Program-made: the position numbers and the translations under genes
Shown here: positions 4,870 through 39,878 of the stretch, piece after piece
Layout of the letters: every line of letters begins with the position of its first letter
Position numbering within the stretch: the stretch's first letter is position 1
Notes under the pieces: model-generated
Told to the model about the DNA's origin: nothing
Seen by the model: only the letters and a program-made list of their open reading frames with translations
The model's database searches: none
DNA from: a virus
Taxonomy: Duplodnaviria; Heunggongvirae; Uroviricota; Caudoviricetes
Length of the DNA stretch: 64,000 nt
Strand: one strand, 5' to 3'
IMG/VR virus record: IMGVR_UViG_3300026484_000600

Positions 4870-6273
4870 TTAATCATCCTCAATTTTTATTTCAAGCTCT
4901 TTGTCAAAACCTAATTTTTTAAGGTATTGTTTAGCCATTTCTAAACGTCTACATTCAAATTTAACTCTATCTATAACTTGTTTTTCAACTTCTTCAATAT
5001 TTTTACCATTTGCGAAACTCATTATATATGGGAAAGAACCTTTATCATCCTTAAATTTTAATGCTAAATCCTTTTTATTTCCATTCCATGAATTTTTAAA
5101 TTTGGTTTCTGCATCAGACACTATATGATTGACATGATTAACTATAATTTCAGAGATGCTATCAATAAAATCCCGTTCTTCTACATTTTCTTCTGGTATC
5201 ATTGCTATAGTATCATCGATTGTTTCATCTAAAACTTTTTCAACAATTTTATGTTCTTTTAAACCATCAGTTAAAATACCATGTAGTGACATATACCAAT
5301 CAGTTTTTACTTTAGCCATCTTACCATTTTCAAATGTGATTACCCAACCTTCTTTATCTTCAACAGTTTCTTTTAATTTAAGTAACTCATCTAATGTATA
5401 TAAAGGTTCTTGTTCAGCTGTTAATACATTGAATGCTTTTACTAATGTATGATCATATATATTTAGATATAAACCGTCATTATTTTCATCCCGTAGTTGT
5501 AGTAATTTAAGTGATGTTTCAGGATATGATAACACTATCTTATTAAACGGAGAAACTATTTCAAAGATTGCAGCATAGCCAAATTCTAAGGTTGCTAAAA
5601 TAAATGCTTTAAGTTTAGGATCTTTTTCAACTATTTCCATAGCTAATTTACATTGTTCCGCTTCAAATGAAAATTTTGTTTTAGCTACTAATTCTCCTTC
5701 TATTAAAAGAAATCTAATTGCAGAACCATCCTCTTTATTTGCAACTCTCACTATTTCTAAATCTTTTACATCTTCATACATCCAAGAATTTTCAGGCTTC
5801 AATGTTGGTAACACCTTTTTATCTAATGATAAAATCTTAAAAAAGTCTCCGTGAGTCTCGTTGTTTCTATCAAATTCAGCAACAGTCATATTTAATTTTA
5901 AATCTATTGCTCTATACGTTTTATCGTTTTCATCAACAAAAAGTTTATTAATATTACAAATTTCAGAATGATTATTAATAGAAAGTTCCATATTTGTTAT
6001 ATTAGTTCCATTTGTTTGACCAATATTAAAAAATTTATCGATGAATAGATATGTTTTCCAATCGGAATTTTGAGCTTTTACAAATGTTATACCTCTTAAT
6101 TCTGTGGCTCTAACCATAGAACCATCTAATTTTGCATCAAAAAAATCACCTGCATTTGCTAAAAAATAAGTACACATTGCAATTTCTGTATTGCCTATTT
6201 TTTGATGTTTCATTTTGAAAGTTTCATTTATTTTTGTGATTTCTAATACTTCATTGTAAGTTAATAAAGCCAT
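4870..6273 (-). CDS. rnlA: RNA ligase 1 (T4 RnlA family, tRNA repair ligase)
   Basis: ELRGITF and KFFNIGQ match T4 Rnl1 ECRGIMF and KFFNLNE. Nucleotidyltransferase motif I KEDGS (T4 K99 EDGSL). 467 aa. Confidence 0.75.
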   Translation of the reverse strand: MALLTYNEVLEITKINETFKMKHQKIGNTEIAMCTYFLANAGDFFDAKLDGSMVRATELRGITFVKAQNSDWKTYLFIDKFFNIGQTNGTNITNMELSINNHSEICNINKLFVDENDKTYRAIDLKLNMTVAEFDRNNETHGDFFKILSLDKKVLPTLKPENSWMYEDVKDLEIVRVANKEDGSAIRFLLIEGELVAKTKFSFEAEQCKLAMEIVEKDPKLKAFILATLEFGYAAIFEIVSPFNKIVLSYPETSLKLLQLRDENNDGLYLNIYDHTLVKAFNVLTAEQEPLYTLDELLKLKETVEDKEGWVITFENGKMAKVKTDWYMSLHGILTDGLKEHKIVEKVLDETIDDTIAMIPEENVEERDFIDSISEIIVNHVNHIVSDAETKFKNSWNGNKKDLALKFKDDKGSFPYIMSFANGKNIEEVEKQVIDRVKFECRRLEMAKQYLKKLGFDKELEIKIEDD

Positions 6274-6358
6274 TTTTAAGACCCTTTATTTTAAATATAT
6301 ATGAATTATATCTAAAAAAGTCTTAAAAAAATATAAAAGGGTGATAATTTTTTAGTGT

Positions 6359-7510
6359 TTATTCGGTTCTGTAAATATAAAAATTTTCAGTTTCTCCGTT
6401 TAATGATACGGTTTCTTCATATTCCTCACCGTCATATGATGCAATATTAGTACCTCTACCATCTGTATCGACAATCCATTCTATAAAAGCATCTTCGTCT
6501 AATAATCCATGTTCTTTTACTATATCAGAAATATCACCGATATTATTTTTCCAGTATTCAACACCATCTTCATCATCAACTCGTGTTTCTGCAAATTCTT
6601 CAATATTATTATCAATATCATCTTCTAAATCTGATTTATATTCTTCTTTTTCACGTTCCCAAGCTTCAATCGCATCATCATATTCCTCTTGAGCTTCTTC
6701 TTCTAAACGATCTTGTTCTTCTTCCCACTCTTCTTCTGCATTTGATAATTCATCTTCCCATTTACTATGCGCTTCTTCCCACTCTTCTTCAGTTTCATAA
6801 TCATTTTTTACCGGTTCATTATCATAAAAATCTGAACTATCAAATTCCTCTCTTTCATAGGTATAATCTGATTCATCTGGTTCTTCGGGCCATTCTGGTT
6901 CAGAAAGAATGCCTAACTCTACCATTTCCTCATGTAATCTATTAATGTATTCATCGGAATTTGTACCTTCGTGTTTGATATCTTCAGCATAACTCATACT
7001 CATTTCAATTTTTGCATCATCAAACCAATCAGTATCAATAAAATTATCTAATGCATGATCCCTAGCCCATTCACTAAATCCATCAAATCCCACATCATCT
7101 AATAAATTTTCAACTCGTTCTTTAGCTATTTCATCAGCTTCATCATCAGTTAAAACTAAATATTTTTCTCTTCCAGATGTAAAAGTATATGGGTCTCTAT
7201 CTTCTTCTATATCTACAAAATCATATCCAGAATATTGATGTAATGCTAAGGCTCTCATAGGATCTGAAAAATCACTTAATGTAACAAAATTTTTTAATTC
7301 ATCAACTAAATCATCATCAATATTGTGGTCAGTCATATCAATTTCATCATCTGAAAAAAATAATTTTCCGGCTTCAATCCATTTTCCTAAAAATTCACCT
7401 AATTCTGTTGAAATTTCTAAATCATCAGGAATAAACTCGCCTTTATCTATTCTTCCTGATACTTCTATATCCCCATACTCTGTTTTTATTAATATATTAT
7501 CAACTCGCAT
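6359..7510 (-). CDS. Highly acidic hypothetical protein
   Basis: 383 aa, extremely D/E-rich with repeated EEWEE/DDxDD segments. No catalytic motif. Confidence 0.5.
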   Translation of the reverse strand: MRVDNILIKTEYGDIEVSGRIDKGEFIPDDLEISTELGEFLGKWIEAGKLFFSDDEIDMTDHNIDDDLVDELKNFVTLSDFSDPMRALALHQYSGYDFVDIEEDRDPYTFTSGREKYLVLTDDEADEIAKERVENLLDDVGFDGFSEWARDHALDNFIDTDWFDDAKIEMSMSYAEDIKHEGTNSDEYINRLHEEMVELGILSEPEWPEEPDESDYTYEREEFDSSDFYDNEPVKNDYETEEEWEEAHSKWEDELSNAEEEWEEEQDRLEEEAQEEYDDAIEAWEREKEEYKSDLEDDIDNNIEEFAETRVDDEDGVEYWKNNIGDISDIVKEHGLLDEDAFIEWIVDTDGRGTNIASYDGEEYEETVSLNGETENFYIYRTE

Positions 7511-7769
7511 CGTATTGATCTCTATTTAAAGAATATTCTAAGATATTAATTGAATCGCCGCCATTATCATCAAATGAAACTCTTAGATTATCTGATGTCT
7601 CTCTACCAATCCATATCGCATCTTTAAGATTCTGTCTTGGTCCTTCGCCTATAAACTCAAGAAAAATTTCTTCACCCTGGCTTCTAAATGATATATCTTG
7701 AGATAATTCTTTTTTTGATTTAATTTTTTTTAATGTCTCTTCCATTTCTTTTACTGTTGAAAATTTCAT
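7500..7769 (-). CDS. Hypothetical protein
   Basis: 89-aa ORF in the operon, overlapping its upstream neighbour by 11 nt. Confidence 0.4.
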   Translation of the reverse strand: MKFSTVKEMEETLKKIKSKKELSQDISFRSQGEEIFLEFIGEGPRQNLKDAIWIGRETSDNLRVSFDDNGGDSINILEYSLNRDQYDAS

Positions 7770-7807
7770 AAATATTCTCCATATTCTATTTTTAATATAT
7801 TTATACT

Positions 7808-8329
7808 CTAAATCATAAAATGGTTTAATCTTTTTAAAATTTTAGAGACTGTCTTTTCAGTTAGACCTATGTATGGATTTGTTTCAAAAACTCTATCTCT
7901 AAATATTTCCCTCATATTATTACTAACAAATTCAGAATTTCCAGTAATATCAAATAATTCATCATCTAAAATAATAAAATCTTTCACTTTGAAATATTCA
8001 ACAGCATCTAAAATTTGTTTGCCCCTACCATAAGATTTTCTATCTGTTCCACCAATAATTCTATTAGTATATTTAAATCCAAAGTTTTCTAAAGCTTTAA
8101 CTGTATTAACTGAATAATACCACGAACTCGAGATTATTACTTTCCAATCATTATTTTCAAGGATTTTATTTAATAAAGTGACTTTATCATAATCCATACC
8201 CATTAATCCATTCCATTTATTTTGAGTACCTTTAACTGGATTTTGTATATATCCATTTGGAAAAGTAAATGATTTTTGAAGATGATAATTATTTAAAACG
8301 CCGTCAATATCTAAAAATAACGCGTTCAT
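7808..8329 (-). CDS. HAD-superfamily phosphatase (possible polynucleotide/nucleotide phosphatase)
   Basis: HAD motif I FLDIDGVL, motif II IISSS, motif IV ILDDE. 173 aa. Confidence 0.55.
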   Translation of the reverse strand: MNALFLDIDGVLNNYHLQKSFTFPNGYIQNPVKGTQNKWNGLMGMDYDKVTLLNKILENNDWKVIISSSWYYSVNTVKALENFGFKYTNRIIGGTDRKSYGRGKQILDAVEYFKVKDFIILDDELFDITGNSEFVSNNMREIFRDRVFETNPYIGLTEKTVSKILKRLNHFMI

Positions 8330-8475
8330 TCAACTACTTCAATAGTAAAATCTTTATGATTTTCATAAAATGCTGATATGATGTTTAAGTCATGAACAGA
8401 CAAACCACATTCCCAAATGTTAAGTATTTTAAATTCGCCTGTTTTAATACAAGTTATTTTTAATTCATCAAACAT
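8326..8475 (-). CDS. Small hypothetical protein (49 aa)
   Basis: Unlisted short ORF with a strong TAAGGAG RBS. Its stop overlaps the ATG of the HAD phosphatase gene (ATGA). Confidence 0.35.
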   Translation of the reverse strand: MFDELKITCIKTGEFKILNIWECGLSVHDLNIISAFYENHKDFTIEVVE

Positions 8476-8917
8476 AGTTGCTCCTTAGTAATTGATTTAT
8501 TTTATTGAATCTATCATTGATTTTTGTAACAATCAAACGTTGGTTTTGAGAAATTGGTGGTATTTCATTTAAATTAAACCATTTCAATTCAAAAACCTCT
8601 CGTTTATCTAATTTAATTCGATTATATAAATATTTATCCCAATGAATAAAGTATAGTTCAATATTTTTCTTTTTATTATTTTGTTTGACGGAAAAATCTA
8701 AATCTTCTTTAGCGATCGATATACCTATTTCTTCCTGAACTTCTCTCAAACAACATTCAATTTTAGTTTCGTTTGGTTCAATTTTTCCTTTAATGAAATC
8801 AAAATTGTCATTTTTTCTAGATGATTTCATTAAAAGAATAGAGACGCCGTTGTTAGATAGTAAATAAGGTATAATTCCAATGGATATAGGTTTCATATGG
8901 TTCACTTTATATAGCAT
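8468..8917 (-). CDS. Nudix hydrolase
   Basis: Nudix box GKIEPNETKIECCLREVQEEIGI (Gx5Ex7REUxEExGU). Confidence 0.7.
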   Translation of the reverse strand: MLYKVNHMKPISIGIIPYLLSNNGVSILLMKSSRKNDNFDFIKGKIEPNETKIECCLREVQEEIGISIAKEDLDFSVKQNNKKKNIELYFIHWDKYLYNRIKLDKREVFELKWFNLNEIPPISQNQRLIVTKINDRFNKINQLLRSNYV

Positions 8918-9185
8918 TATTAGTACGGTTTAATGTTTTGTGCGCAAGTTTTATAAACTCAAATGACACATCATCAGGATGAATTTTAAAACCATATTCA
9001 TCTTCAAATTTTTTAGTCCATAAACTATAATGATTTCTTAATTCCATACCTAAACTAAAATGGTATATTATTAAATCGTTTTCATCGGTATTAATAAAAT
9101 CATTTAGTGGTTTAAAATCTTTAAGGTCATCTGATAGTAGAAGTTTCACAACCTCTACTAAATCTTCTGGAGGATTAGAAATCAT
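8907..9185 (-). CDS. Hypothetical protein
   Basis: 92-aa ORF, operon context. Confidence 0.4.
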   Translation of the reverse strand: MISNPPEDLVEVVKLLLSDDLKDFKPLNDFINTDENDLIIYHFSLGMELRNHYSLWTKKFEDEYGFKIHPDDVSFEFIKLAHKTLNRTNNAI

Positions 9186-10324
9186 TTATATTTCCTAGTA
9201 ATAATTTCCACTTTGTCGTCTGAAAATTGAGTAAGTTTTTCAGTCCAAGTAATAATTCTAGAGCGTTCTACAAATTCATTTTGAGCATAATCCATAGTTC
9301 CTTCAGAAATAGGTTTCAGGTATTTTTCTTTTTTAACTAAAATACCGTATTTAAATTTATCTTCGACTTCTTCCCAATCTTTACCAGTAGTTTCTTTACA
9401 GTATTTGACCTGTTCAAGACCATTTTTTCCTAATAGAGATTTATGAGAACAGTATGTTTGAGCATACATTGATCTAGAGTTCTTCTCAGAATCTCGAATT
9501 CGCCACATGATACTATTAAATGCTTCTTCTTTGGATGATACACCATAAACTCTGGCATCAAACCATGCATTGCCTACTTTTTCTTCCATAGTTTTAATGT
9601 ATTTCATAATATCTGGATTATTGGTATCAATTTCTCTATTTTCTAATTTTTGATCATATTCTTCAAACTTTTTTTCTAAAAAATTAGAAAAATGCTTATT
9701 AAACTGCATAGTAGTATAGGCCGCTATTAAAGAAGTTAATTTCTGAATTCTACCACCAAAAATCTGTTCATTTGTTGTCTCTACTTTTTTAATAATATAT
9801 TTTGATAGTACTTCTAATGATTTAGTTTCTGTTTGTATGTTTCTATTTTGCCAACAACATCGATCTATAATTTCGTCATTAGTATCAGAAACTATCCAAA
9901 AGTTGATACTAAAATATTTATCCTCCGTATCTTCATAAATTATATCTAATGAGCCAAGTAAGTTATACTCTTTATCATAAACTTTATATGATACTTCTTC
10001 TTCATCATTAAGAAAAAATAAATCTTTAACTTCAATAGGTATTAATCTTTCTTTGAATTGAGGAGCAAATACTAATGAAATTTCATCTGATTGTGTGTAA
10101 CCTGTTACTGCTCCAAATTTTTCAACGAGATTTTTGGTTGTTTCTTCCATTGTATTAGATAATATGTCATCAAATGGTTTTTTCATACCTTTTGTGTATT
10201 TACTAAATTTATGACCATCGATTCTACAAATGATAAAATCTCTTGGATCAATTACTGATTCAAATTCTTTTTCATAACCTTTAAGCCTAGTTCCTAAAGA
10301 TTCCTCTCTCATACTTTTTTTCAC
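9182..10324 (-). CDS. Thg1-like protein (tRNA-His guanylyltransferase family, 3'-5' polymerase) with a C-terminal extension
   Basis: The N-terminal 250 aa track Thg1: FIICRIDGHKFSKYTK (the RIDGxxFxxF motif), KPFDD, GYTQSDEISLVF (Thg1 GESDEYSF). 380 aa total, about 130 aa longer than Thg1. Confidence 0.7.
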   Translation of the reverse strand: MKKSMREESLGTRLKGYEKEFESVIDPRDFIICRIDGHKFSKYTKGMKKPFDDILSNTMEETTKNLVEKFGAVTGYTQSDEISLVFAPQFKERLIPIEVKDLFFLNDEEEVSYKVYDKEYNLLGSLDIIYEDTEDKYFSINFWIVSDTNDEIIDRCCWQNRNIQTETKSLEVLSKYIIKKVETTNEQIFGGRIQKLTSLIAAYTTMQFNKHFSNFLEKKFEEYDQKLENREIDTNNPDIMKYIKTMEEKVGNAWFDARVYGVSSKEEAFNSIMWRIRDSEKNSRSMYAQTYCSHKSLLGKNGLEQVKYCKETTGKDWEEVEDKFKYGILVKKEKYLKPISEGTMDYAQNEFVERSRIITWTEKLTQFSDDKVEIITRKYK

Positions 10325-10333
10325 AGTTATCCT

Positions 10334-10537
10334 TTACCAAGTATTTTCTTCTTGTTCCTCTAAAAGACGTTCATACATTAAATCTATCTCATCTTTAACT
10401 TGTTTAAATGAAACCTTTTCAACCATATTAATTTTTTTTGTAAAACGTATAAAACCTTCTAGGGTTTTATATTCGTTAAATTTTGTATTTAGGTTTTCTA
10501 CTAAATTGTTTAATTTTGTCAATTCATTATGTGTCAT
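10334..10537 (-). CDS. Hypothetical protein
   Basis: 67-aa ORF, operon context. Confidence 0.35.
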   Translation of the reverse strand: MTHNELTKLNNLVENLNTKFNEYKTLEGFIRFTKKINMVEKVSFKQVKDEIDLMYERLLEEQEENTW

Positions 10538-10550
10538 ACTATTTCCTTTT

Positions 10551-10871
10551 TTATATAATTATTTTTAATAATTTTGATATTTTATTTGAAATTTCTATTT
10601 TATTATTTTCAACAAATTCAAATATTAGGATATTCAGCCACGTTTTGCTGGTTTCCACCTCATTTATTTTTATAAATGATTTATTATCTTCTTCTATTAA
10701 TTCATAAGATTTAATATCAATATCTAAGGGTTTATCTTCACCAAGTAATAAAATGGATAATTTTATGGATTTACTATCTGGATCTATTTTGATATTTAAC
10801 ATATGTCCTATCCTTTGTATTTTAAAATTAATAAACGTAGATATAAATTTTAATTTTAAATTATTTAACAT
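10551..10871 (-). CDS. Hypothetical protein
   Basis: 106-aa ORF. Confidence 0.35.
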   Translation of the reverse strand: MLNNLKLKFISTFINFKIQRIGHMLNIKIDPDSKSIKLSILLLGEDKPLDIDIKSYELIEEDNKSFIKINEVETSKTWLNILIFEFVENNKIEISNKISKLLKIII

Positions 10872-10900
10872 AATGTATTATAATGTAATTATACTTAAAA

Positions 10901-11239
10901 TTATATAAAAAGTTCTGGATTTGATTTTGAAAGAGAATTTAATATAGATTCTGCCGTTGTTAATTTTTGTATTTCTGATTTATATTGGTCTTCAATAAAT
11001 TTTTTCCGTTTATTATAAATATCTTTATAAATTTTCCAACCTTCACTTAAACTATCAGTTAAGATATACCCAGATGCTTTACTAGGATATGGGTGTTTAC
11101 TGTCATCATCCCAATATACAAATTTTTTACTTAGTTTTTTAATTTTAAAAACTGGTAAAGCTAAATGTGAATATACGGCATATAACTCAATATTTTCTCT
11201 ACGAGCAATAGTTAATTTTTCTCTATCAGTATAAATCAT
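10901..11239 (-). CDS. Hypothetical protein
   Basis: 112-aa ORF. Confidence 0.35.
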   Translation of the reverse strand: MIYTDREKLTIARRENIELYAVYSHLALPVFKIKKLSKKFVYWDDDSKHPYPSKASGYILTDSLSEGWKIYKDIYNKRKKFIEDQYKSEIQKLTTAESILNSLSKSNPELFI

Positions 11240-11408
11240 TATTTTTTTCAGATTTTTTTCTTGGGTCTAAATTAAACAATAAGTTGTCATATGCATTTTG
11301 TAAACTTTCAGCATAGCTATCCCATACATCTAAAGAATTTATTTTATTATTAAGTGATAAAAGTTTCTCTTCCCATTCTTTATATTCTTTTGTATCTTCA
11401 ATTTTCAT
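11226..11408 (-). CDS. Hypothetical protein
   Basis: 60-aa ORF overlapping its downstream neighbour. Confidence 0.3.
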   Translation of the reverse strand: MKIEDTKEYKEWEEKLLSLNNKINSLDVWDSYAESLQNAYDNLLFNLDPRKKSEKNNDLY

Positions 11409-11559: not shown

Positions 11560-12534
11560 TTAATAGATACCTATTTGAGTACGAGTAAGATTTGTTGTTC
11601 CGTTTCTCTTGTAACCAAGACTTTCATATCTACTAATTACATTGGCTACTTTTTGAGCACTATCAATATCAGTTGCAACCATACTAAAAAGTTTAGATTT
11701 GAACCAAGCTTTTCTCTCATCTGGAACATTAAGTGTGCCAAGGTAAATACCCATAATAGTATCTACTTCTTTGTAACTTGCTCCTAGTTGAGCTTCATCA
11801 GTATCATCTTCAGTAACCATAAGACCATCTGATGGTGGTTGGGAAATAATATCTTCTCTAACTCCAAGAGCTTTAGCGATTGCTGGAAGCTCAAAACCCT
11901 TACCAATATTTTGGATTGGTCCAAAGTCACCAACATCACCACAAATAGTCCAAAAACCCATTTGAAATTCTGAAAGGTTGTCTGTTGAAAGTACCATACC
12001 ATTTGTCTTTCTAGCAAGGTCATAAAGAGTAATCATTCTAAGTCTTGCTTTAATATTACCTTCAAGTATATTAGTTGGAAACTCTTTCGTTTTAAACCCC
12101 GCTTTCTCAGCAAGTTTATCGGTCATTGAAACGGTATTAAATACTTCCGACATCATATTAGTAGGGTCATCAAATGCTTCTGCTTCTCCACTTGTAAAGT
12201 AATCTGCATCCCAACTTTTGAATTCTTCAAAAGCCGTACAATAGTTATCTCCAACCCATTGAGCTTGTTCTTTGTGTTCATTACTTGAACTCATTGGAAT
12301 AGATATACCAATTAGAGGTACTCCTGTAAATTCTTCTTGACAAAGTGCTGCAACAACGGCACTATCAAGACCACCACTTACTCCAAGAACAAGTGATTTA
12401 AGGTTGTTCCTTTTAACATAATTTTTAACTTGTGCTCTAATATTTGAAATGACCATATTCGCCTTTTGTGTACTAGGCGTAGTTATTTCGTCTATTTTAG
12501 TTACTAGATCATTAAACGATTTGATATTATTCAT
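11560..12534 (-). CDS. nadE: NH3-dependent NAD+ synthetase
   Basis: PP-loop ATP pyrophosphatase motif LVLGVSGGLDSAVVAALC. Length and overall pattern match NadE. Confidence 0.8.
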   Translation of the reverse strand: MNNIKSFNDLVTKIDEITTPSTQKANMVISNIRAQVKNYVKRNNLKSLVLGVSGGLDSAVVAALCQEEFTGVPLIGISIPMSSSNEHKEQAQWVGDNYCTAFEEFKSWDADYFTSGEAEAFDDPTNMMSEVFNTVSMTDKLAEKAGFKTKEFPTNILEGNIKARLRMITLYDLARKTNGMVLSTDNLSEFQMGFWTICGDVGDFGPIQNIGKGFELPAIAKALGVREDIISQPPSDGLMVTEDDTDEAQLGASYKEVDTIMGIYLGTLNVPDERKAWFKSKLFSMVATDIDSAQKVANVISRYESLGYKRNGTTNLTRTQIGIY

Positions 12535-13435
12535 AATTCTGTACCTCTACTTTTTGTTTTTTGTTTTTAAGATAATCTTGCACAAACCATAATTGCCCAC
12601 ATCCGCCGCCAATATCATCTTGTCCAGCAGGATCAAATATTCTAGTATTATATCCGTCCGTTAAAAATGATTTTTCAAAATCTCTAATAGTATCTAAATT
12701 TCTACATGCACTATCTTTCATTGTTTCATCAGCTTCACAAATAACACTAAATGTGAAATTAAAAACAACTGGTGAAAATAAGTTTTTGAGATTATCTATA
12801 TCTGAAATAGAATTATTTGTTCCATCAACACAATAATTCAGATAAACTTTTCTACCTGTTTCTTTATTCCAAAGAATACCTCTATCTCTGATTTCTCTAA
12901 GAGTGTATTTCTTTTTAAATGGAATCAAGTCATTTCTTTCATCGTCATTTGATTTATGAATGCTAAACTGCAAACCCACTTTGTTAATTTCGGTTGATAA
13001 TTCGATAAAATCATTAAAAACCTCATCATTATCAATACCGATAGTTGAAATTAATAGATCGGCATTAGGATAAAGTTTATTCAATTTAATGATAGCCTCT
13101 TTAACGTTTTCATAATTAAGAAATGGTTCTCCCATACTCATAAACATTATTTGTAGTTTTTCACATCGACTGTTTATATCTTCAATATTTTTATCTTTAA
13201 AAATAGTTGTTATCTGTTCAACTATTTGATCCGACGAAATATTTTTTAAGAAATTTTTACCAGTCCCACAAAAGGTACATCCAACAGGACAACCACTTTG
13301 TACAGAACAACAAATAACAGTTCTTTTATCGAATGAACCATATTTATATAGCACACTTTCTAAAACTATTTCATCATCATTAAAAATATATTTCCAAACA
13401 TTCTCTTCTGAACTTTCTATTACTTTCATGATCAT
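12527..13435 (-). CDS. Radical SAM enzyme of the RlmN/Cfr family (rRNA/tRNA adenine C-methyltransferase-like), N-terminally truncated
   Basis: ICCSVQSGCPVGCTFCGTG matches RlmN CVSSQVGCALECKFCSTA (CxxxCxxC), with the following ISSDQIVEQI (RlmN VSEIIGQV). The C-terminal GGGCGQL matches the RlmN catalytic AACGQL. 302 aa versus about 380 for RlmN. Confidence 0.65.
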   Translation of the reverse strand: MIMKVIESSEENVWKYIFNDDEIVLESVLYKYGSFDKRTVICCSVQSGCPVGCTFCGTGKNFLKNISSDQIVEQITTIFKDKNIEDINSRCEKLQIMFMSMGEPFLNYENVKEAIIKLNKLYPNADLLISTIGIDNDEVFNDFIELSTEINKVGLQFSIHKSNDDERNDLIPFKKKYTLREIRDRGILWNKETGRKVYLNYCVDGTNNSISDIDNLKNLFSPVVFNFTFSVICEADETMKDSACRNLDTIRDFEKSFLTDGYNTRIFDPAGQDDIGGGCGQLWFVQDYLKNKKQKVEVQNYE

Positions 13436-14070
13436 TTTGCATCTCCAGAAAAGGTTACGCCTCTATTTTTCATAATATTAATATTTGTTTGGAAACTATC
13501 ATCTATTGATCCATCTGGAAATGATTTTATTCCTTCAACAGCATCCGAAAGAATATTAACTGTATAACCATTTTTGATTAAACCCATAACATTCATAAAT
13601 ACACAGTAATTTGTGGCTACACCCACAATGTCTATAATTGTTTCCTCTGGTTTAAAGGTATTTGTAAAAATAGATTTAAAGTTTGAATTTCCTTGCCAAA
13701 TATCAAAAACATCTTTTGTAAAAAACATTTCCGAATCAACTATAAATGTGTTAAATGGTATAGTTCCTTTATTGCCTCCACCATTTGCAATAAAGTTATC
13801 CCAATTTTTATATCTTGGTTTAATTTTATAAAAATTCCATCCAGTCGTCCCAAATTCACAATGAATTGAAGGAAAAATTTTAGATTCATCAGAACCACTA
13901 TATTTATCAGATGTGTGTGTATCAAAAGTATAAATTACATTTTCATATGATTCATCATGGATATAAGATTGGATATTATCAACTAATTTATCAGCATTAG
14001 GTACTGATAGAGCCCCTGTTGGGCTAGCAAAGTCAAATTGGTAGTCTACTACTATAAGTATTTTTTTCAT
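13432..14070 (-). CDS. pncA: Nicotinamidase / isochorismatase-family hydrolase (PncA-like)
   Basis: N-terminal IVVDYQFDF (catalytic Asp). Catalytic Cys context VGVATNYCV. Confidence 0.65.
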   Translation of the reverse strand: MKKILIVVDYQFDFASPTGALSVPNADKLVDNIQSYIHDESYENVIYTFDTHTSDKYSGSDESKIFPSIHCEFGTTGWNFYKIKPRYKNWDNFIANGGGNKGTIPFNTFIVDSEMFFTKDVFDIWQGNSNFKSIFTNTFKPEETIIDIVGVATNYCVFMNVMGLIKNGYTVNILSDAVEGIKSFPDGSIDDSFQTNINIMKNRGVTFSGDAK

Positions 14071-14171: not shown

Positions 14172-14204
14172 TATACTTAAATATAAATAAAGAAAAATAA
14201 GTGA

Positions 14205-14597
14205 GTGAGTAATAAAATGTCTAAAAATAAAGAAATTAGTGATTCATTATTTGATAAATTTAATAAAATGACAAATACGGTTGTTGCCTTATATAGTTTT
14301 TTATCTTTTATTATTACGATTGGTATTGGTGGATATATTAGTTATGAAGGGATATTAGATAGTATATCGGAAAATACTGAACGAATAGAAATCACCCAAA
14401 TGATGATATTAAAAGATATAGTGCGTCGTTCTGAACATAATCCTTGTGCAGTAAGTGATACGGAATGGGATGAGTATTTGGAAAATTATAGTACTTTACA
14501 GTCTCTTAAAAAAAAATATAAAAAAATAAGTAGGAACGCTAAATGGGAACCGATAGAAAGATTAATGGAGGATACTGAACAATGCAAAAGATACTAG
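14205..14597 (+). CDS. Hypothetical membrane protein
   Basis: 130 aa with one TM segment (VVALYSFLSFIITIGIGGYISY). Confidence 0.4.
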   Translation: MSNKMSKNKEISDSLFDKFNKMTNTVVALYSFLSFIITIGIGGYISYEGILDSISENTERIEITQMMILKDIVRRSEHNPCAVSDTEWDEYLENYSTLQSLKKKYKKISRNAKWEPIERLMEDTEQCKRY

Positions 14598-14920
14598 TAA
14601 TATTACTTAGTATAACAATTTTAAATGCTGATAATCATTGGAGTAATATATCCGATGAGATTTCATACATCGAAAATAAAATATTGATAGTTGATCAAAG
14701 AAATATTAAGCAAACATGTTTGACATATAAAAAAGAAGTAATACGTTTTTTATATAAAATCAATAATGTAAAATCGTATGAATTACAAAATAGATATTTA
14801 GAAATATCAAATCAATTTTTAAAAAAGTATGATACTTGTGTGAATGATTCGTTAAAAAATAAAGTTTACAAAGGTTATCGAATAAACCCTTTAATATCGG
14901 ATGATAATCATATTAGATGA
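14582..14920 (+). CDS. Hypothetical secreted or lipo-protein
   Basis: The N-terminus MQKILVILLSITILNA looks like a signal peptide. 112 aa. Confidence 0.4.
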   Translation: MQKILVILLSITILNADNHWSNISDEISYIENKILIVDQRNIKQTCLTYKKEVIRFLYKINNVKSYELQNRYLEISNQFLKKYDTCVNDSLKNKVYKGYRINPLISDDNHIR

Positions 14921-15195
14921 AATTTCATCCGATAAATATACAAATCATGTTACCATAGTGATTTGACTTCTATTTTTTCTTTTTATACCATTTTATTATA
15001 TAGGAGATTATTATTAAACTCATAAATCGCCTCCTAAATCAAAGATATTTTTTATAGAAGATTCAATAAATGAATTTACGTAAATAATATCCGAGTAAAA
15101 ATAAAATTTAAATAAGATCTACTAATTGAATGTAACATAATTATCTCCTTCTGTCGATATGACTAATTATTTATTAAAATTATACAAAAATGTTA

Positions 15196-17886
15196 TTATA
15201 ATCTTGGGTCGACACTTTCTTCTTTTTCATTTTCAAATAATAGATTGGCTATAATTTGTATTTGTTCTTTACTACCCATAGGAGCTTTAAGCATTTCTTC
15301 TCCTAATTTATACTCTGATATAGAAAGTCTTAATTTTTTAGAAATATTTTTTTGATTTAATAATCTATTAAATTTAATAGGGAATTTATAATCGTATCCA
15401 TAAATAATAGAAAGATATTCTTCATTTCTCACTTTTAAATATGGTGCAATCCAAGACTCTAATAATTTCACTTCGGGTTTTATTACGCAACCCTCCATAT
15501 TTTGATTTCGCACCAAATTATCATACCATTTTTCAGCTTTAATCAAATAATTTTTATCATCAAAATCAACAATATGTATATTATCTGAATTTAATAATTT
15601 AAAGTGTTTACTAGGAGTTAAATCCAAATTAATTATATTATTGTTTGATATTGCTTTCAATAATCTAAAACCTTTAAAATCAGTATTTGTATCTTCTCCA
15701 TAAAGGGTTATTTGTTTATTAAAAATTTTCCAAGCTTTTTTGTGGTCACTTAAAGGTATAAATCTATCAATTTCAAATTTTAAATCTTTATAAGAGTGAT
15801 ACTTGTGTCCATATTTTTTAACCAACTCTTTTTTAGCTAAAATATTCTTATCTTTTAAAAATTCTGATTTGTTAAATTCATCCTTTAAACTTATAAAAGC
15901 CTTATCAAATCCATTATCAAACAGAAAGTCAATTTCTGTTTGAATAGCTATATCCGCAGTCTTAAAATGGGTATCAATCAAACCTTTTCCTAAAAGAGCC
16001 CATGGTAATAATTCGCCATCTATAATTATCTCATCAGCATTATACATATCAAAAATATGCTTGTATTCTACTAATTTAGATGAGAATAATTCGGTTAAAT
16101 CTTCTCTTATTTTATATCCATTTCTACTTGTAGCATAACATTTTTTAATATTATCTTTAAAGAGATATAGTTGTGCTCTGGAACCCATATATTTAGGTTG
16201 TAGCACTACACTATCTACTTTATCCTTAAAATAATTGAGACCCATTTCTAAAGATTCTAGTGAATTATTTTCGATATTTTTATTTGTAGGGGAAATAGTA
16301 CCTCCTATATAACCTATACCATTTTTTACTATGTAATCTAATCTTCTTTGGTTATATGGATTTAAATCTTCAATAGATACTTCTTTCATAGCTTTACCTA
16401 TATCTTCAAACAGATTATTTCCAAAGTCGTTTCTTGCACTCTTAGGAGATAATGATTTTACACTTTGAATAAATGCTTTGCCATAACCTATACTATATCC
16501 AGTTAATTTTCCACCATATACACAACCTGTATCAATACAAACCTTATTTTTAAAAGATCTAACAGATGACTGACCCATATGACCGAATATATGAACCGGA
16601 TGGTTATTAATTGCTTCTTCTTTCAAATATGATGTTAATTCATCATTAGTCTTATCTTTGTTTTTACTTCTACTAGCACATTTATATTGGTGTTTTAATG
16701 AAATTCGATCCATCTTTTCAAGATATTTAACTTCACATGGTGCATGAGTAACTATAAAGCCTCTTTTATTTAATCCTATAAATTTAACCCATCCTTTCAT
16801 ATTATGAAAAATATCTAAAAACATAGATTTTAGCTCTTCATTTTTCTCTAGTAAAATTGCTGTATTATAGTATCTTTTTTTCTGATCTAATCGTTCTGGA
16901 GTAATTTCTAAATCTTTGTGATTTGTTATCCATTTCCAAACCATCTCTTCATGATTGCCCAATATTAATTGAAATCGATCTTGAAATTTTATCATATTTT
17001 TGTGTATGAATTTTATAGTTTCAGTTAAATCTTCTTCTGATGATTTATCTATTAAATCACCTGCAAAAATTAGTCCTATATTTTTTGTTTTAACAGTATC
17101 TATAATTTCATTGTCTTTAATTATAAAACCATATTTTTCAAGTAATTGTTTTAATTCTTGAATACATCCATGAACATCACCAATAGTAATCCAATCATAA
17201 GTACTATTTACTATTCTGTCAGTATATTTTTTCCAATCCCATACATCTACACTATAAACAGGCTTTAACATTGTAGGTGTTAAATCATATCGATTTTCCT
17301 GTTCCACTTCCAAAAGAAAATCTTTATTTTTAATTTTATGAATATTTTTATATATCCCTTTTTTTAATGTTTTTAATGTCTCCGTTTTTAATCTTTTTAT
17401 ATGTTTAGAAATAATTTTCCCATTGGTACTTGGACGTTGATATAGGCTTTCAGAAAAATTCTTTTGGTATTCATCAATATTTTTATAATCGAAAACTATA
17501 ATATCTACATTATAATTATTATCTTTTGCTATATCTAACACGTCGTTTCTAAATTTTTCGCTTAATCCGGTTGTATCTAAAATAACAAATTCTGCATTGA
17601 TTGGATAACTGGTAACAGCTCTTAATTTTGTAAATAGTATTTCGAATGCTTGTGTTGAACTCTCAGTCATAATTTCATCTATTTTACCATAGTTATAACC
17701 CAAAATATCTTTTCTAATATTATCGGAACTAATATATTGTATATTTGTCTTTAAATTATTATTAACATTGCCTTTATATTTTTGTAATGAAGGTATTAGA
17801 ATTTCATTAGCAAACGTCGTTTTACCAGAACCACTAGGTCCGACAAGCATTATTATGGTATGTACTTGGGTTTTAATTTTATTCAT
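15196..17886 (-). CDS. pnkp: Bacterial-type polynucleotide kinase-phosphatase Pnkp (kinase + metallophosphoesterase + ligase domains)
   Basis: N-terminal P-loop kinase (VGPSGSGKTTFAN). Central calcineurin-like phosphatase motifs (GDVHG, GDLIDKS, GNHE). C-terminal about 450 aa with a KYMGSR lysine motif, consistent with the Pnkp ligase domain. 896 aa. Confidence 0.7.
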   Translation of the reverse strand: MNKIKTQVHTIIMLVGPSGSGKTTFANEILIPSLQKYKGNVNNNLKTNIQYISSDNIRKDILGYNYGKIDEIMTESSTQAFEILFTKLRAVTSYPINAEFVILDTTGLSEKFRNDVLDIAKDNNYNVDIIVFDYKNIDEYQKNFSESLYQRPSTNGKIISKHIKRLKTETLKTLKKGIYKNIHKIKNKDFLLEVEQENRYDLTPTMLKPVYSVDVWDWKKYTDRIVNSTYDWITIGDVHGCIQELKQLLEKYGFIIKDNEIIDTVKTKNIGLIFAGDLIDKSSEEDLTETIKFIHKNMIKFQDRFQLILGNHEEMVWKWITNHKDLEITPERLDQKKRYYNTAILLEKNEELKSMFLDIFHNMKGWVKFIGLNKRGFIVTHAPCEVKYLEKMDRISLKHQYKCASRSKNKDKTNDELTSYLKEEAINNHPVHIFGHMGQSSVRSFKNKVCIDTGCVYGGKLTGYSIGYGKAFIQSVKSLSPKSARNDFGNNLFEDIGKAMKEVSIEDLNPYNQRRLDYIVKNGIGYIGGTISPTNKNIENNSLESLEMGLNYFKDKVDSVVLQPKYMGSRAQLYLFKDNIKKCYATSRNGYKIREDLTELFSSKLVEYKHIFDMYNADEIIIDGELLPWALLGKGLIDTHFKTADIAIQTEIDFLFDNGFDKAFISLKDEFNKSEFLKDKNILAKKELVKKYGHKYHSYKDLKFEIDRFIPLSDHKKAWKIFNKQITLYGEDTNTDFKGFRLLKAISNNNIINLDLTPSKHFKLLNSDNIHIVDFDDKNYLIKAEKWYDNLVRNQNMEGCVIKPEVKLLESWIAPYLKVRNEEYLSIIYGYDYKFPIKFNRLLNQKNISKKLRLSISEYKLGEEMLKAPMGSKEQIQIIANLLFENEKEESVDPRL

Positions 17887-17895
17887 AAGAATCCT

Positions 17896-18489
17896 TTATT
17901 TGAATGTATAACCATCTAACTGATAAATCGTTTGTATTTCGTCATCAGTCCATGATTTATATCTTTTCTTTACTACTTTTATTTTTTTATCAAGGTAGCT
18001 AGCTTTCATACTATTATAAGAATCACTAGAACCGCCTCTATCGATTAGAAGAGGTTGTTTTTCACCTTCTACTATCAAAATAAATATACTGTGGTTGTCA
18101 TTATACATAAGAGAAACATTTTTATCAAATGGTATTTCTTCATCAATTCGTTCTGAATGATAATAGTCATGAATTGCAGGGGATATAGCAAATGGGTAAA
18201 AAATCCCAATTAATATTATTGGCAAACCAATAATAGCAAACCAATTATAATATGCTTCATTATCCCAATGTAAATCATAATTATATTTTGAGTGTTCATT
18301 TATTCCCACATAAATAAAATGTGCAATAACGCCTATAATTAGGAATGATAAATATACTCCCCAACTACCATCCGAAAACCATGTTATAATGCCTATAACC
18401 AATGTTATGATAAATGGTATTGTGTATAGTTTTGTTCTTAGTAACGATTTGGTTTTAAACTTAGATGTTACATTGCTTTTGATATTCAT
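17896..18489 (-). CDS. Membrane protein of unknown function, encoded between hen1 and pnkp
   Basis: 197 aa with three to four predicted TM helices. Confidence 0.45.
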   Translation of the reverse strand: MNIKSNVTSKFKTKSLLRTKLYTIPFIITLVIGIITWFSDGSWGVYLSFLIIGVIAHFIYVGINEHSKYNYDLHWDNEAYYNWFAIIGLPIILIGIFYPFAISPAIHDYYHSERIDEEIPFDKNVSLMYNDNHSIFILIVEGEKQPLLIDRGGSSDSYNSMKASYLDKKIKVVKKRYKSWTDDEIQTIYQLDGYTFK

Positions 18490-18498
18490 TACAAGCCT

Positions 18499-18795
18499 TT
18501 ATATAAATTTTTCTGGAAACATCTCAATAGCTTTATCAAATGCTATCTGTGCTTCTTCAATTGTGATATTATATTTAATAGCAACTTTATCTATACTTAA
18601 ATGATTTTTCTTATTTCTAAAAATTGATATATTTCTTTCTTCGGCGGTTTTATACAGTTTATGTTCCAACGGTACTATGATATTGGTATCTTGACCTTCT
18701 ATTGAAATTGATTTCAGAAAAGAATTTCCGCTATTTTCTTCAATACCCTCAAAGAGTTCATTCTTTATAGTAATACCATAAACTAAATCAGCCAT
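18499..18795 (-). CDS. Hypothetical protein
   Basis: 98-aa ORF between hen1 and pnkp. Confidence 0.4.
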   Translation of the reverse strand: MADLVYGITIKNELFEGIEENSGNSFLKSISIEGQDTNIIVPLEHKLYKTAEERNISIFRNKKNHLSIDKVAIKYNITIEEAQIAFDKAIEMFPEKFI

Positions 18796-19673
18796 TCTGG
18801 AAATCTCCTAATAATTCTTTCCCAAACATCTTCAGGAATCTCTGATTGAAAATCATTTTTTAATGCGAATTTAATATTCTTTTCAGTCATCCATAAAAGA
18901 TCTACATCTTCTTTTTCAAAGCGCTCATATAAGAATGGACTAGCCCAAACTATAATTCGATCATCTTTTATTAAATATCCATTATTTGCAGCTTCTATAT
19001 ATTCTAAATATTCAAAAATTATATCTTCACGATCTATTCCTTTTATTTCAAGAATATTAAAAGAGTTTTTAAAATGTCCTAAAAGTTTTTCTTTTCCATC
19101 ATATTGTATCTTATCTTCAACATAGAAAATACTTTGATGGAACCCTTTACCATAGGTATCCATAACATCATAATTCATTTCGAGGGGTATATTATTGTAA
19201 AAAATATCAGTAATTACAATGTCTCCAGTACCGATATAATCTGTATCTTTTGCCTCTATTACTAATAAATCTTTATTAAAATCGTCGGTATTTTTTAAAA
19301 TTTCTGTTTCAAAAAAAATACCTTTTTCTATTGATACTGATGAAATATACCAACCATCAGATAAAAAATTATCATCATTAATATTAAGGGTTAAATCACT
19401 AATATTAATAGTATCATATTTTGAATATTCGTATTCATTAACATTAATAGAAATACTACCATCAATAGCACAACTGGAAATATGTTCTATATCATCAAAA
19501 TCATAATATTGTCTTTCCCATCCACTACTACTGAATAATGTATCAAAATGGCCAATAATTTCATTGTAATCAAAACGTCTAAGAAGTTCTTTTATATTGT
19601 TGATATGGAGCTTATTGAGCTTACCACAGCAATATTCTCCACCATATCCACCAAATGTTAATACCATTTTCAT
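18783..19673 (-). CDS. Hypothetical protein
   Basis: 296-aa ORF between hen1 and pnkp. No motif recognised. Confidence 0.45.
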   Translation of the reverse strand: MKMVLTFGGYGGEYCCGKLNKLHINNIKELLRRFDYNEIIGHFDTLFSSSGWERQYYDFDDIEHISSCAIDGSISINVNEYEYSKYDTINISDLTLNINDDNFLSDGWYISSVSIEKGIFFETEILKNTDDFNKDLLVIEAKDTDYIGTGDIVITDIFYNNIPLEMNYDVMDTYGKGFHQSIFYVEDKIQYDGKEKLLGHFKNSFNILEIKGIDREDIIFEYLEYIEAANNGYLIKDDRIIVWASPFLYERFEKEDVDLLWMTEKNIKFALKNDFQSEIPEDVWERIIRRFPEWLI

Positions 19674-20923
19674 ACCCTTTTAATTATACAACCAATACTT
19701 GTAGATATACCATTGATATTATCGCCTATTTCTATAAATTCAAAGGATAGGTTATCATTATTAAAATTAGACATAAAACTTTTAAATTCATCAAATGTAG
19801 GTTCCCAATCATGATCATCATGTCGCATTTCTCCACCTAATTCGTAAAATACGTTAAAGTCTTTATTTGGTACTGTAATGATAAACGTATCAAAATTAAT
19901 AGATGTTAGCACTAATTCTATTAATCTTTTTGATTCAACTTTTGGCATATGTTCGATAACTTCGGTTAGTATTACATCTACTAACTCATTATCGTAATCT
20001 TTTATAAAATCTTCTAGACTATTAAAGAGATTAATATTTGTAATTTCTTTTTTTGAAGCTTTTATCTTGACTGACTCTAATAGATTAGGATTAATATCAA
20101 TGGCGTTATAAAAATATTTTTCTATTTTTTTAGAAAAATCTATTGCATAAAATCCTTCTCCACACCCAATATCAATAATCGATTTATTAAATGATAATAA
20201 ACGCTCTATTCTATCTTTTCGTTGCATAGCCGTATTACCATAAGCCATATTGATATTATATCTTTTTGATTCTTCAAGTAATTGTTTATATTTTTTAAAT
20301 TGATTTTTACTTTTAATAAGATTTCTACTTACTAAATAACGTATAAAGAATGGTGCATCTAATCGATTCATAGCATTTAGGTATTTTTCAATATTTGAAT
20401 TATCTAAATGTACATAGTCGTTACTTGATAATGCAATAAAAATCATCATAAGATTAATATAATTTAATAACATGAACCAACTATTTTCAGTTGTCACCTT
20501 AATAGTATAGTTTTTCCCTACTTGTTCAGTAATTTCAATTTCAAAATCAGGGAAATATTTCTTAAAATCCATTAACTGTTTTATTCTTTTAATTTCGAGT
20601 AAATTAATATAAAAATATTTCGGGTTTTTTATATCTAATTCTGATTCTTCTCTAACAGTACTTGAAAAAAATTCACTTATTGCATTGATAATAAACATGG
20701 GCGAGTTGTATTTAGAAATATTTAGATAATCAAATTCTTGTGATCCAAAGGATACATCATTATCAGCATCCTTAAAATAGATATTAAAGTCGGTACCATT
20801 ATGAGAGTACCAGGTAAATGCAGTACCTTTACGTATACTTCTTATTTGCATAGATGAATTTGGATTTTTTTTAATAATGTATCCAAAATTTGGATCATCA
20901 GAATGTAGCTGTAAAATAGCCAT
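19670..20923 (-). CDS. hen1: Hen1-like RNA 3'-terminal 2'-O-methyltransferase (C-terminal Rossmann MTase)
   Basis: SAM-binding motif I IIDIGCGEGFYAIDF in the C-terminal half of a 417-aa protein. Bacterial Hen1 has the same architecture and partners with Pnkp, which lies 1.8 kb downstream in the same orientation. Confidence 0.55.
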   Translation of the reverse strand: MAILQLHSDDPNFGYIIKKNPNSSMQIRSIRKGTAFTWYSHNGTDFNIYFKDADNDVSFGSQEFDYLNISKYNSPMFIINAISEFFSSTVREESELDIKNPKYFYINLLEIKRIKQLMDFKKYFPDFEIEITEQVGKNYTIKVTTENSWFMLLNYINLMMIFIALSSNDYVHLDNSNIEKYLNAMNRLDAPFFIRYLVSRNLIKSKNQFKKYKQLLEESKRYNINMAYGNTAMQRKDRIERLLSFNKSIIDIGCGEGFYAIDFSKKIEKYFYNAIDINPNLLESVKIKASKKEITNINLFNSLEDFIKDYDNELVDVILTEVIEHMPKVESKRLIELVLTSINFDTFIITVPNKDFNVFYELGGEMRHDDHDWEPTFDEFKSFMSNFNNDNLSFEFIEIGDNINGISTSIGCIIKRV

Positions 20924-39876: not shown

Positions 39877-39878
39877 AA

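Follow-up and report, generated by a model that had tools for sequence, protein, structure and literature searches.

Why would a phage keep, side by side within a short piece of its genome, two RNA ligases, enzymes that heal broken RNA ends, a ribosome-rescue RNA and genes for the resynthesis of nicotinamide adenine dinucleotide (NAD+)? The question is raised by the virus record IMGVR_UViG_3300026484_000600 of IMG/VR, a member of the Caudoviricetes, of which a stretch of 64,000 nucleotides was analyzed (hereafter the window). The original prediction, made from the letters of the DNA, had described a layered tRNA and RNA repair arsenal at positions 4870-20923. The genes in question extend beyond this interval, from 2521 to 23455 (approximately 21 kb); they have identifiable products with intact motifs, and their linkage is conserved in related phages. 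We consider it likely that, in a T4-like jumbo phage with a genome of approximately 220 kb, they form an island for counter-defence, which would restore the translation apparatus after an abortive-infection attack by the host.

Protein families were assigned by Pfam, PHROG and NCBIfam searches, by alignments to solved structures in the PDB and by motif searches. RNA genes were identified with Rfam and ARAGORN, and relatives, designated here by L numbers, were compared by tblastn. More distant relatives came to light in searches with four proteins described below, namely the acidic protein, Rnl1, Ro60 and the product of a 296-residue open reading frame (ORF). When the 16-kb interval was compared by megablast with 50,697 phage records, no match was obtained, and an exact look-up of the Pnkp protein returned no record. 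The window is uniformly rich in A+T (G+C content approximately 27%) and nearly all of its genes are on the minus strand. Its phage context consists of a UvsW_N domain, a short topoisomerase II subunit, Acb1, intein-bearing helicases and families represented only in PHROG; T4-like replication genes are present and no core bacterial housekeeping genes were seen.

Pnkp and Hen1

The five enzymes at the center of the original prediction, namely Rnl1, a HAD phosphatase, a Thg1-like protein, a trifunctional Pnkp and Hen1, are all encoded on the minus strand of the interval. Each is supported by profile matches and intact catalytic motifs.

Pnkp (15196-17886, minus strand), a protein of 896 residues, is composed of a 5'-kinase (approximately residues 1-200), a binuclear metallophosphatase (approximately 230-480) and an ATP-dependent RNA ligase (approximately 510-896), recognized by AAA_33 (40 bits), the phosphatase family phrog_246 and PNKP_ligase (PF16542, 108.7 bits), respectively. 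The kinase contains the P-loop GPSGSGKT (16-23) and, within SSDNIR (53-58), the catalytic aspartate; the best PDB matches of residues 1-216 are to the kinase domain of Clostridium thermocellum (Cth) Pnkp (4gp6, E=8e-5). The phosphatase displays the motifs GDVHG (236), GDLIDKS (276), in which Lys-Ser replaces Arg-Gly, GNHE (310), THAP (380) and GHMG (435), and matches the Cth Pnkp phosphatase (4j6o) with 57.5 bits. The ligase domain is aligned over its full length with Rnl of the Capnocytophaga Pnkp1-Rnl-Hen1 complex (4xrp_B, 155 bits); its KYMGS motif (565-569), which contains the lysine nucleophile, coincides with KYMGS of Capnocytophaga Rnl, and EGCVIKP (798) and LKVRN (817) align as well. 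Full-length trifunctional homologues with 38-42% identity, named polynucleotide kinase-phosphatase or metallophosphoesterase, are common in the Firmicutes genera Paenibacillus, Brevibacillus, Bacillus and Listeria, so that the fused architecture of the phage protein is ordinary.

Hen1, an RNA 3'-terminal 2'-O-methyltransferase (19670-20923, minus strand), is encoded 1.8 kb upstream of Pnkp on the same strand, and the two genes are also linked in L001, L002, L003, L009, L030 and L031. The N-terminal ligase-activating domain (Hen1_N, PF22032, residues 3-220) scores 221.9 bits and is followed by a C-terminal Rossmann methyltransferase (Methyltransf_25 and Methyltransf_31, residues 246-336). Over its full length the protein matches Capnocytophaga Hen1 (4xrp_C, 133 bits), and the motif DIGCGEG (251) for the binding of S-adenosylmethionine and the metal-binding motifs EVIEH (321) and RHDDHDWE (367) align with those of solved Hen1 enzymes.

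The genes pnkp and hen1 have been reported to share one operon, and in vitro all activities of Pnkp1-Rnl-Hen1 are needed for the repair of colicin-cut tRNA, in which the repaired junction becomes resistant to cleavage (PMC4411300). As in the Capnocytophaga complex and the bacterial Pnkp-Hen1 systems, a 5'-kinase, a 2',3'-phosphatase, a 2'-O-methyltransferase and a ligase are brought together here, with intact motifs and the Hen1 N-terminal domain. Unlike those systems, the set is encoded by a phage, and three ORFs (296, 98 and 197 residues; 17896-19673, minus strand) part Hen1 from the downstream Pnkp.

Among 50,697 deposited phage genomes, Pnkp and Hen1 were found together in only five: XacN1, Vibrio RYC, vB_VpaM_sm033, Stenotrophomonas CM1 and RAS14. 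In XacN1 (L019) the kinase, Hen1 and the ligase are separate genes, and a nicotinate phosphoribosyltransferase is encoded at a distance of 4 kb. Vibrio phage RYC (L018) has a stand-alone Rnl and an apparent Hen1 fusion, a 717-residue ORF annotated as "polynucleotide kinase". In L002 (11354-15473) a kinase ORF and a phosphatase-ligase ORF are parted by a LAGLIDADG gene on the opposite strand.

Rnl1, its acidic neighbor and the HAD phosphatase

The second ligase, Rnl1 (467 residues; 4870-6273, minus strand), belongs to the T4-type RNA ligase 1 (Rnl1/RnlA) family, with scores of 51.2 bits for PF09511 (RNA_lig_T4_1, cut-off 28.3) and 172 bits for phrog_562. Its best PDB match is T4 Rnl1 (2c5u, 73 bits), with which motifs I, III, IV and V align as KEDGS (180-184, containing the lysine nucleophile), FEIVSP (237), EGWV (308) and KVKTDWY (321). 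The phage protein is approximately 90 residues longer than T4 Rnl1. A HAD_SAK_2 phosphatase of 173 residues (7808-8329, minus strand; PF18143, 66.4 bits) contains the motif DIDGV at residues 7-11 and no kinase domain; it belongs to an RNA-repair-associated family and is a candidate 3'-phosphatase. In L009, L013, L015 and L027 the HAD gene was not found by tblastn.

The coexistence of T4-type and bacterial-type pathways, as originally predicted, is borne out for the two ATP-dependent RNA ligases, which are unrelated to each other, and for Hen1, but not for a T4-type Pnk kinase. No such kinase is encoded near Rnl1 and the HAD phosphatase, and a scan for P-loops identified Pnkp as the only P-loop kinase of the island. 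Because Pnkp holds the only polynucleotide kinase, Rnl1 and the HAD phosphatase would depend on it, and with two ligases, two or three end-healing phosphoesterases and a single kinase the two routes are not independent of each other. In the T4 pathway, PseT/Pnkp and Rnl1 counter the anticodon nuclease PrrC. The island resembles it in having an Rnl1 homologue with all of the aligned nucleotidyl-transferase motifs and a HAD-superfamily phosphatase nearby; it departs from it in the absence of a kinase-HAD fusion, the HAD protein being stand-alone and lineage-specific and the kinase being that of a bacterial-type Pnkp.

Always directly upstream of Rnl1, in the window as in L009, L013, L015 and L027, are an 89-residue ORF (7500-7769, minus strand; approximately 85 residues in the relatives) and, overlapping with it, the gene of a strongly acidic protein of 383 residues (6359-7510, minus strand) with a net charge of -101 and an isoelectric point of 4.05. 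The AlphaFold2 model of the acidic protein has a predicted local distance difference test (pLDDT) score of 89, yet it matches no fold in the PDB, and the protein matches no family. A profile search yielded 1638 unnamed relatives; in a sample of 35 of them, a polyvalent-protein domain, LPD11 or DarA_C, occurs in single members. It is our speculation that the acidic protein and the 89-residue ORF serve as a nucleic-acid mimic or anti-restriction decoy. Stp of T4 triggers the anticodon nuclease; in certain hosts the use of such a decoy could likewise set off anticodon nucleases, and the constant association with Rnl1 would then be accounted for.

In some relatives, the matches to Rnl1 (L027:10001-11711, L029:2884-5492) and to Ro60 (L027:13235-14841) are broken up into several separated pieces, which suggests introns, inteins or frameshifts in these repair genes.

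The Thg1-like protein and the Nudix hydrolase

The Thg1-like protein (380 residues; 9182-10324, minus strand) is a predicted 3'-5' nucleotidyltransferase of the bacterial Thg1-like protein (TLP) type, with scores of 92.4 bits for PF04446 and 188 bits for phrog_4717. Among PDB entries it is closest to the Bacillus thuringiensis TLP (4kgk, 79.6 bits); the match to a tRNA-His guanylyltransferase (5xox) reaches 25.5 bits. The catalytic motifs RIDGHKF (34-40) and SDEIS (79-83) are in place, and two insertions, at approximately residues 88-183 and 212-240, extend the protein to 380 residues as compared to about 245. Homologues of Thg1 were found in 162 phage records.

The Thg1-like gene is followed by the genes of a DUF6794 protein (8907-9185, minus strand) and of a Nudix hydrolase (8468-8917, minus strand; PF00293, 56 bits) with a perfect Nudix box, GKIEPNETKIECCLREVQEEIG. 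The three genes are chained by start/stop overlaps of -4 and -11 nucleotides. In L017, L027 and one contig of the Joint Genome Institute (JGI) the Nudix gene directly follows Thg1. Of the two Nudix enzymes thought to lie in the interval, this is the one that does; a six-frame scan for the Nudix box located the other at 50734-50799, in a gene at 50467-50913 (PF00293, 39 bits) far outside the island.

tmRNA, SmpB and Ro60

Six genes that did not figure in the original prediction enlarge the picture: those of a PncA-like protein, NadE and an RlmN/Cfr-like enzyme inside the interval, and those of transfer-messenger RNA (tmRNA), SmpB and Ro60 just outside it. The tmRNA gene (ssrA; 4335-4715) is on the plus strand, opposite to the protein genes. 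It was identified by ARAGORN and by Rfam RF00023, the full model of which (1-374) is covered with 114 bits, and it specifies the tag ANTKLYIPQTARVAA. In all six lineages for which DNA was available the tmRNA gene is located between Rnl1 and Ro60, although inverted in L029, and in four lineages the tag reading frame, read by eye, is conserved. SmpB, the protein partner of tmRNA (23006-23455, minus strand; PF01668, 165.4 bits), is encoded at the far end of the island and is likewise kept upstream of Hen1 in L001, L030 and L032.

Ro60, a TROVE RNA-binding protein with a C-terminal vWA-like region (2521-4020, minus strand), marks the other conserved end of the island. It scores 59.7 bits for TROVE (PF05731, cut-off 23) and 23.3 bits for vWA_Ro60, the latter below the cut-off; it is 60-71% identical to the proteins of L009, L013, L015, L027 and L029, and homologues occur in 92 phage records. 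Rfam searches of the window, run with gathering thresholds and by E-value, revealed no Y RNA beside Ro60. The RNA partner of the phage Ro60 could be the phage tmRNA or, in relatives, a noncoding element found upstream of Ro60.

That element, of 150-225 nucleotides, is conserved on the same strand upstream of Ro60 in four relatives (L013:20420-20606, L027:12889-13114, L029:7863-8014 and, as two tandem copies, L009:14199-14396 and 14484-14680). A hairpin block conserved at its 5' side reads GGUGUU-GGGAU..AUCC-A-ACC..GUUGAG, and a block at its 3' side reads GUUAGAGGAACCCCAAUU..GAUUUCAUCA; the terminal stem is not conserved. There is no Rfam match, and searches of the window, L004 and L015 with nhmmer detected none. 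As its position recalls that of Y RNA genes, it could be a Y-RNA-like partner. In the window, the spacer between the starts of Ro60 and tmRNA (4021-4334) is approximately 97% identical to that of L004, compared with 89% in the surrounding DNA, and contains repeated AGAG/CTCT hairpins. The 315-nucleotide spacer folds weakly better than shuffled sequences (z = -2.2), on the plus strand only, and might have a regulatory role or encode a small RNA.

NAD+ salvage and an RlmN/Cfr-like methylase

Three genes in the middle of the island, all on the minus strand, overlap in series. They encode a PncA-like nicotinamidase (13432-14070; Isochorismatase, 55.6 bits; motifs VDYQFDF, DTH and YCV), a short, putative radical-SAM RNA methylase of the RlmN/Cfr type (302 residues; 12527-13435; Radical_SAM, 35.9 bits) and the NAD synthase NadE (11560-12534; NAD_synthase, 145.6 bits). 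The PncA-like protein and NadE are predicted to provide the first and last steps in the recycling of nicotinamide to NAD+, and both genes are kept in every relative. The radical-SAM gene was encountered only in L001/L004 and one JGI contig. Its product matches RlmN (6fz6) with 81 bits and Cfr (9p0p) with 67 bits; it has the cluster cysteines CPVGCTFC, the motif MGEP and both mechanistic cysteines (CC at 42-43 and the C-terminal CGQL) and lacks the N-terminal approximately 100 residues of RlmN, which form the RNA-binding domain. The enzyme could re-modify tRNA A37 or rRNA and thereby block toxins. Some twelve other phage genomes encode homologues of similar length (44-57% identity), most of which carry the annotation "hypothetical". 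The interval contains the multi-enzyme toolkit for end healing and sealing that had been postulated, but it is not devoted to RNA repair alone, as the NAD+ salvage genes and the RlmN/Cfr-like methylase also lie inside it.

Conservation of the island

The window belongs to a contig of approximately 221 kb, as a protein with 100% identity on record shows. A close relative is a 224-kb IMG/VR viral contig (L001/L004) that is fully syntenic, with 89% nucleotide identity. In more distant relatives a common order is recognizable, starting with Hen1 and, after intervening genes, Pnkp, a plus-strand 130-residue ORF, PncA, NadE and a 112-residue ORF. Further genes, among them in some cases Thg1 and Nudix, then lead to the 89-residue ORF, the acidic protein, Rnl1, tmRNA and Ro60. 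This order is kept, in whole or in part, in L009 (a 261-kb contig), L013, L015, L027/L028, L029 and a JGI contig. Altogether the island recurs, completely or partially, in at least six divergent phage lineages, the proteins of which are 35-71% identical and the G+C contents of which range from 26 to 40%. SmpB and the arrangement of Hen1, ORFs of approximately 295, 100 and 200 residues, and Pnkp recur in further contigs. Because gene order is kept across divergent relatives, the clustering is not due to chance, and the conserved synteny argues that the genes of the island work together. Start/stop overlaps connect Hen1, the 296-residue ORF and the 98-residue ORF; PncA, the radical-SAM gene and NadE; Thg1, DUF6794 and Nudix; and the 89-residue ORF and the acidic protein.

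The occurrence of layered RNA repair in giant phages has already been published. Thg1 (two copies), PNKP and Hen1 were reported together in XacN1 in 2018 (PMC5852040). Iyer et al. (2021) described multi-ligase RNA repair, kinases, phosphoesterases, TROVE, Thg1 and NAD+ salvage in jumbo phages, with no mention of Hen1 and tmRNA (PMC7824862), and tmRNA and SmpB are known from huge phages through the work of Al-Shayeb et al. (2020; PMC7162821). The island is therefore an unusually complete example and no new type of system. It shares with the jumbo-phage repertoires the combination of several RNA ligases, kinases, phosphoesterases, TROVE, Thg1, NAD+ salvage, tmRNA and SmpB. It differs from them in that most of these functions are contained in one syntenic block of approximately 21 kb kept across a phage clade. 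The block also has a tmRNA gene that never leaves its place between Rnl1 and Ro60, the uncharacterized acidic protein that accompanies Rnl1, and an RlmN/Cfr-like enzyme of reduced length. The contribution of the present case is this concentration of functions, the fixed site of the tmRNA gene and the presence of several conserved genes of uncharacterized function.

Proposed action of the island

If the enzymes act like the characterized members of their families, the substrates and the order of events would be as follows. Cleavage of tRNA or rRNA by host ribotoxins would produce one end with a 2',3'-cyclic phosphate and one with a 5'-OH. The Pnkp kinase would phosphorylate the 5' end, and the Pnkp metallophosphatase, possibly helped by the HAD protein, would remove the 2',3'-cyclic or 3' phosphate. 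Hen1 would then 2'-O-methylate the new 3' end, and the Pnkp ligase domain, activated by the N-terminal domain of Hen1, would seal the break, the junction of which would from then on be proof against transesterifying nucleases. Sealing could also be carried out by the other ligase, Rnl1, which would favor tRNA anticodon loops and use ends healed by the same kinase and phosphatases. The Thg1-like enzyme would refill 5'-truncated tRNAs by templated 3'-5' addition, and we infer that the translationally coupled Nudix hydrolase may trim the 5' triphosphate left behind. Ribosomes stalled on broken RNA would be released by tmRNA and SmpB, and misfolded or damaged RNA would be handled by Ro60. PncA and NadE would speed up the resynthesis of NAD+ from nicotinamide after the action of NADase defences and would also supply the NAD-dependent DNA ligase of the phage, the adenylation domain of which is encoded in the window. 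Plausibly, as had been suggested, the enzymes are directed against more than one kind of tRNA nuclease, some of them acting at the 5' end of the acceptor; Thg1 may equally well serve in the maturation of phage tRNA.

Several points weigh against this interpretation. The counter-defence purpose, the target nucleases and the in vivo roles, like the individual steps, are those which the biochemistry of the enzyme families would predict, the phage and its clade being known here from sequence alone. The NCBIfam scores of Rnl1 (TIGR02308, 93.6 bits), Pnkp (TIGR04075, 193.6 bits) and Hen1 (TIGR04074, 64.8 bits) are far below the equivalog cut-offs of 242, 750 and 340, respectively, so that the exact specificities may differ; the three proteins are divergent viral members of their families. 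The lid arginines of the Pnkp kinase could not be aligned unambiguously. The HAD gene, DUF6794, the RlmN-like gene and the position of Nudix vary by lineage; HAD, DUF6794, the RlmN-like gene and Nudix at this position are accessory. Approximately 12 ORFs of the island have no family match in Pfam and PADLOC. Co-transcription is unsupported, as scans for promoters and terminators performed no better on this AT-rich DNA than on shuffled sequence. Finally, ARAGORN found no tRNA gene in the window whose maturation Thg1 might serve.

Should the genes act as proposed, the block would offer a natural test system of small size, where genes for almost all known responses to RNA damage are neighbors and are held together by selection. 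It could help to find the in vivo substrates of Pnkp/Hen1 and of the bacterial-type Thg1-like proteins, which are still unknown (PMC4411300), and its conserved uncharacterized proteins are candidate new players.

Alternative interpretations

The genes might instead serve the RNA housekeeping of the phage itself, which we regard as unlikely. Thg1 would add G-1 to a phage tRNA-His or mend 5' ends after processing; Rnl1 would mainly be a tail-fibre attachment factor, a role that gp63 of T4 also has and that is reflected in the annotation of phrog_562 as "RNA ligase and tail fiber protein attachment catalyst". Pnkp/Hen1 and Ro60 would treat spontaneous RNA damage during a long infection cycle, and tmRNA/SmpB and the NAD genes would boost the translation and the ligase supply of a large phage. 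Consistent with such functions, many of the 162 Thg1-bearing phage records are tRNA-rich jumbo phages (PMC5852040), translation genes are common in huge phages (PMC7162821) and the window encodes an NAD-dependent DNA ligase domain. However, the sole known biochemical consequence of Hen1 activity is protection from re-cleavage (PMC4411300), the window has no tRNA genes, the genome that contains the island also encodes Acb1, and the linkage of two ligases with end-healing enzymes and ribosome rescue fits the repair of damage better than RNA maturation.

Another, somewhat less probable possibility is that the block represents more than a loose set of genes, namely a co-evolving supermodule for the rescue of the translation apparatus, belonging to one jumbo-phage clade, in which the conserved uncharacterized members have dedicated roles.

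It is very improbable that the clustering has no functional meaning and that a hyperplastic region has gathered unrelated accessory genes (morons). In its favor, many ORFs without assigned function are interspersed; the presence of HAD, Nudix, DUF6794, radical-SAM and the three ORFs that part Hen1 from Pnkp changes from lineage to lineage; and homing endonucleases and interrupted genes occur in relatives. Against this, relatives with 35-70% protein identity and a G+C content of 26-40% share the core order of Pnkp, PncA, NadE, the acidic protein, Rnl1, tmRNA and Ro60, and the start/stop overlaps couple functionally related genes.

A bacterial genomic island or prophage inserted at the ssrA gene of a host, with cellular repair genes, would be in line with the frequent use of tmRNA genes as integration sites, with smpB in many "phage" records being flanking host DNA, and with a prepilin-like ORF and a GGDEF-EAL protein in the window, but synteny and context make it most improbable: Ro60, beyond the tmRNA gene, belongs to the same conserved block, six lineages have the tmRNA gene at this site between Rnl1 and Ro60, one of them (L029) in inverted orientation, the G+C content is uniform, one of the contigs, which measure 221-261 kb, is an IMG/VR viral genome, and the window combines T4-like replication genes with a lack of core bacterial housekeeping genes.

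Acb1

The counter-defence reading of the island gains a further aspect from a gene approximately 40 kb away from it. The protein encoded at 61846-62367 (minus strand) had been taken for a LigT-like 2H phosphoesterase and hence for an additional RNA repair enzyme. Two HITL motifs (residues 49 and 121) place it in the 2H superfamily, but the LigT assignment failed, as both LigT models remained below their cut-offs (2_5_RNA_ligase2, PF13563, 25.8 versus 27 bits; LigT_PEase, PF02834, 17.9 versus 23.3 bits). The Acb1 model (PF23474) is matched end to end with 126.3 bits. Acb1 is the product of gene 57B of T4, and the phage protein, with its end-to-end model match and two HxT motifs, agrees with this family; it is no RNA ligase or cyclic phosphodiesterase of the LigT type. 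Acb1 degrades the cyclic-nucleotide signals of CBASS (cyclic-oligonucleotide-based antiphage signaling system) immunity (PMC9117128). On the basis of this match, 61846-62367 is best regarded as an anti-CBASS gene, that is, a counter-defence gene outside the island and not an RNA-repair gene. Since the same genome also carries Acb1, the phage seems well equipped against abortive-infection defences. The adjoining gene (60906-61853) encodes a MazG-like pyrophosphatase (phrog_1247) of 315 residues. Motifs HITV and HLNV in its C-terminal half may form a second 2H-like domain.

Uncharacterized ORFs of the island

Among the three ORFs between Hen1 and Pnkp, the 296-residue ORF overlaps with the stop of Hen1 and gave no match in a fold search, and hydrophobic stretches read by eye suggest that the 197-residue ORF encodes a membrane protein. 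Four small ORFs of 67, 106, 112 and 60 residues (10334-11408, minus strand) have no matches in Pfam or PADLOC; tblastn showed that the 112-residue ORF is kept in all relatives. The minus-strand run is broken by two plus-strand ORFs of 130 and 112 residues (14205-14920), for which no family matches were obtained. The 130-residue ORF contains a hydrophobic segment, read by eye, and is kept in all relatives; in L009, L013 and L015 it is 43-48% identical (tblastn), always on the opposite strand and between Pnkp and PncA. A 57-residue ORF (4694-4867, minus strand) with a prepilin-type N-terminal methylation motif (PF07963 N_methyl, 25.8 bits) is called as a gene in related contigs; 22 of its bases coincide with the 3' end of the tmRNA gene, which is read from the other strand. 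The ORF fits a coding sequence because the gaps relative to L004, of 9 and 3 bases, are multiples of three; it is probably not involved in the repair function.

Other genes of the window

Both replication helicase genes, in the region 36130-43404, appear to be interrupted by inteins or split: a DnaB-like helicase ORF ends in N-terminal splicing motifs of the intein/Hint type, and a ResIII/DEAD helicase ORF starts with a C-terminal intein motif (37868-39289 and 41995-43404, with 36130-37866). A full-length sensor GGDEF-EAL protein for the turnover of cyclic-di-GMP is encoded by the phage at 32490-34667, and similar genes recur in related phage contigs (L015:92-2152 and the JGI contig); near it, at 35210-35734, is the gene of an HD_4 protein resembling hydrolases of the RelA/SpoT type. 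Two adjoining paralogues of approximately 440 residues each (58042-59352 and 59365-60696) belong to the uncharacterized phage family phrog_10773.

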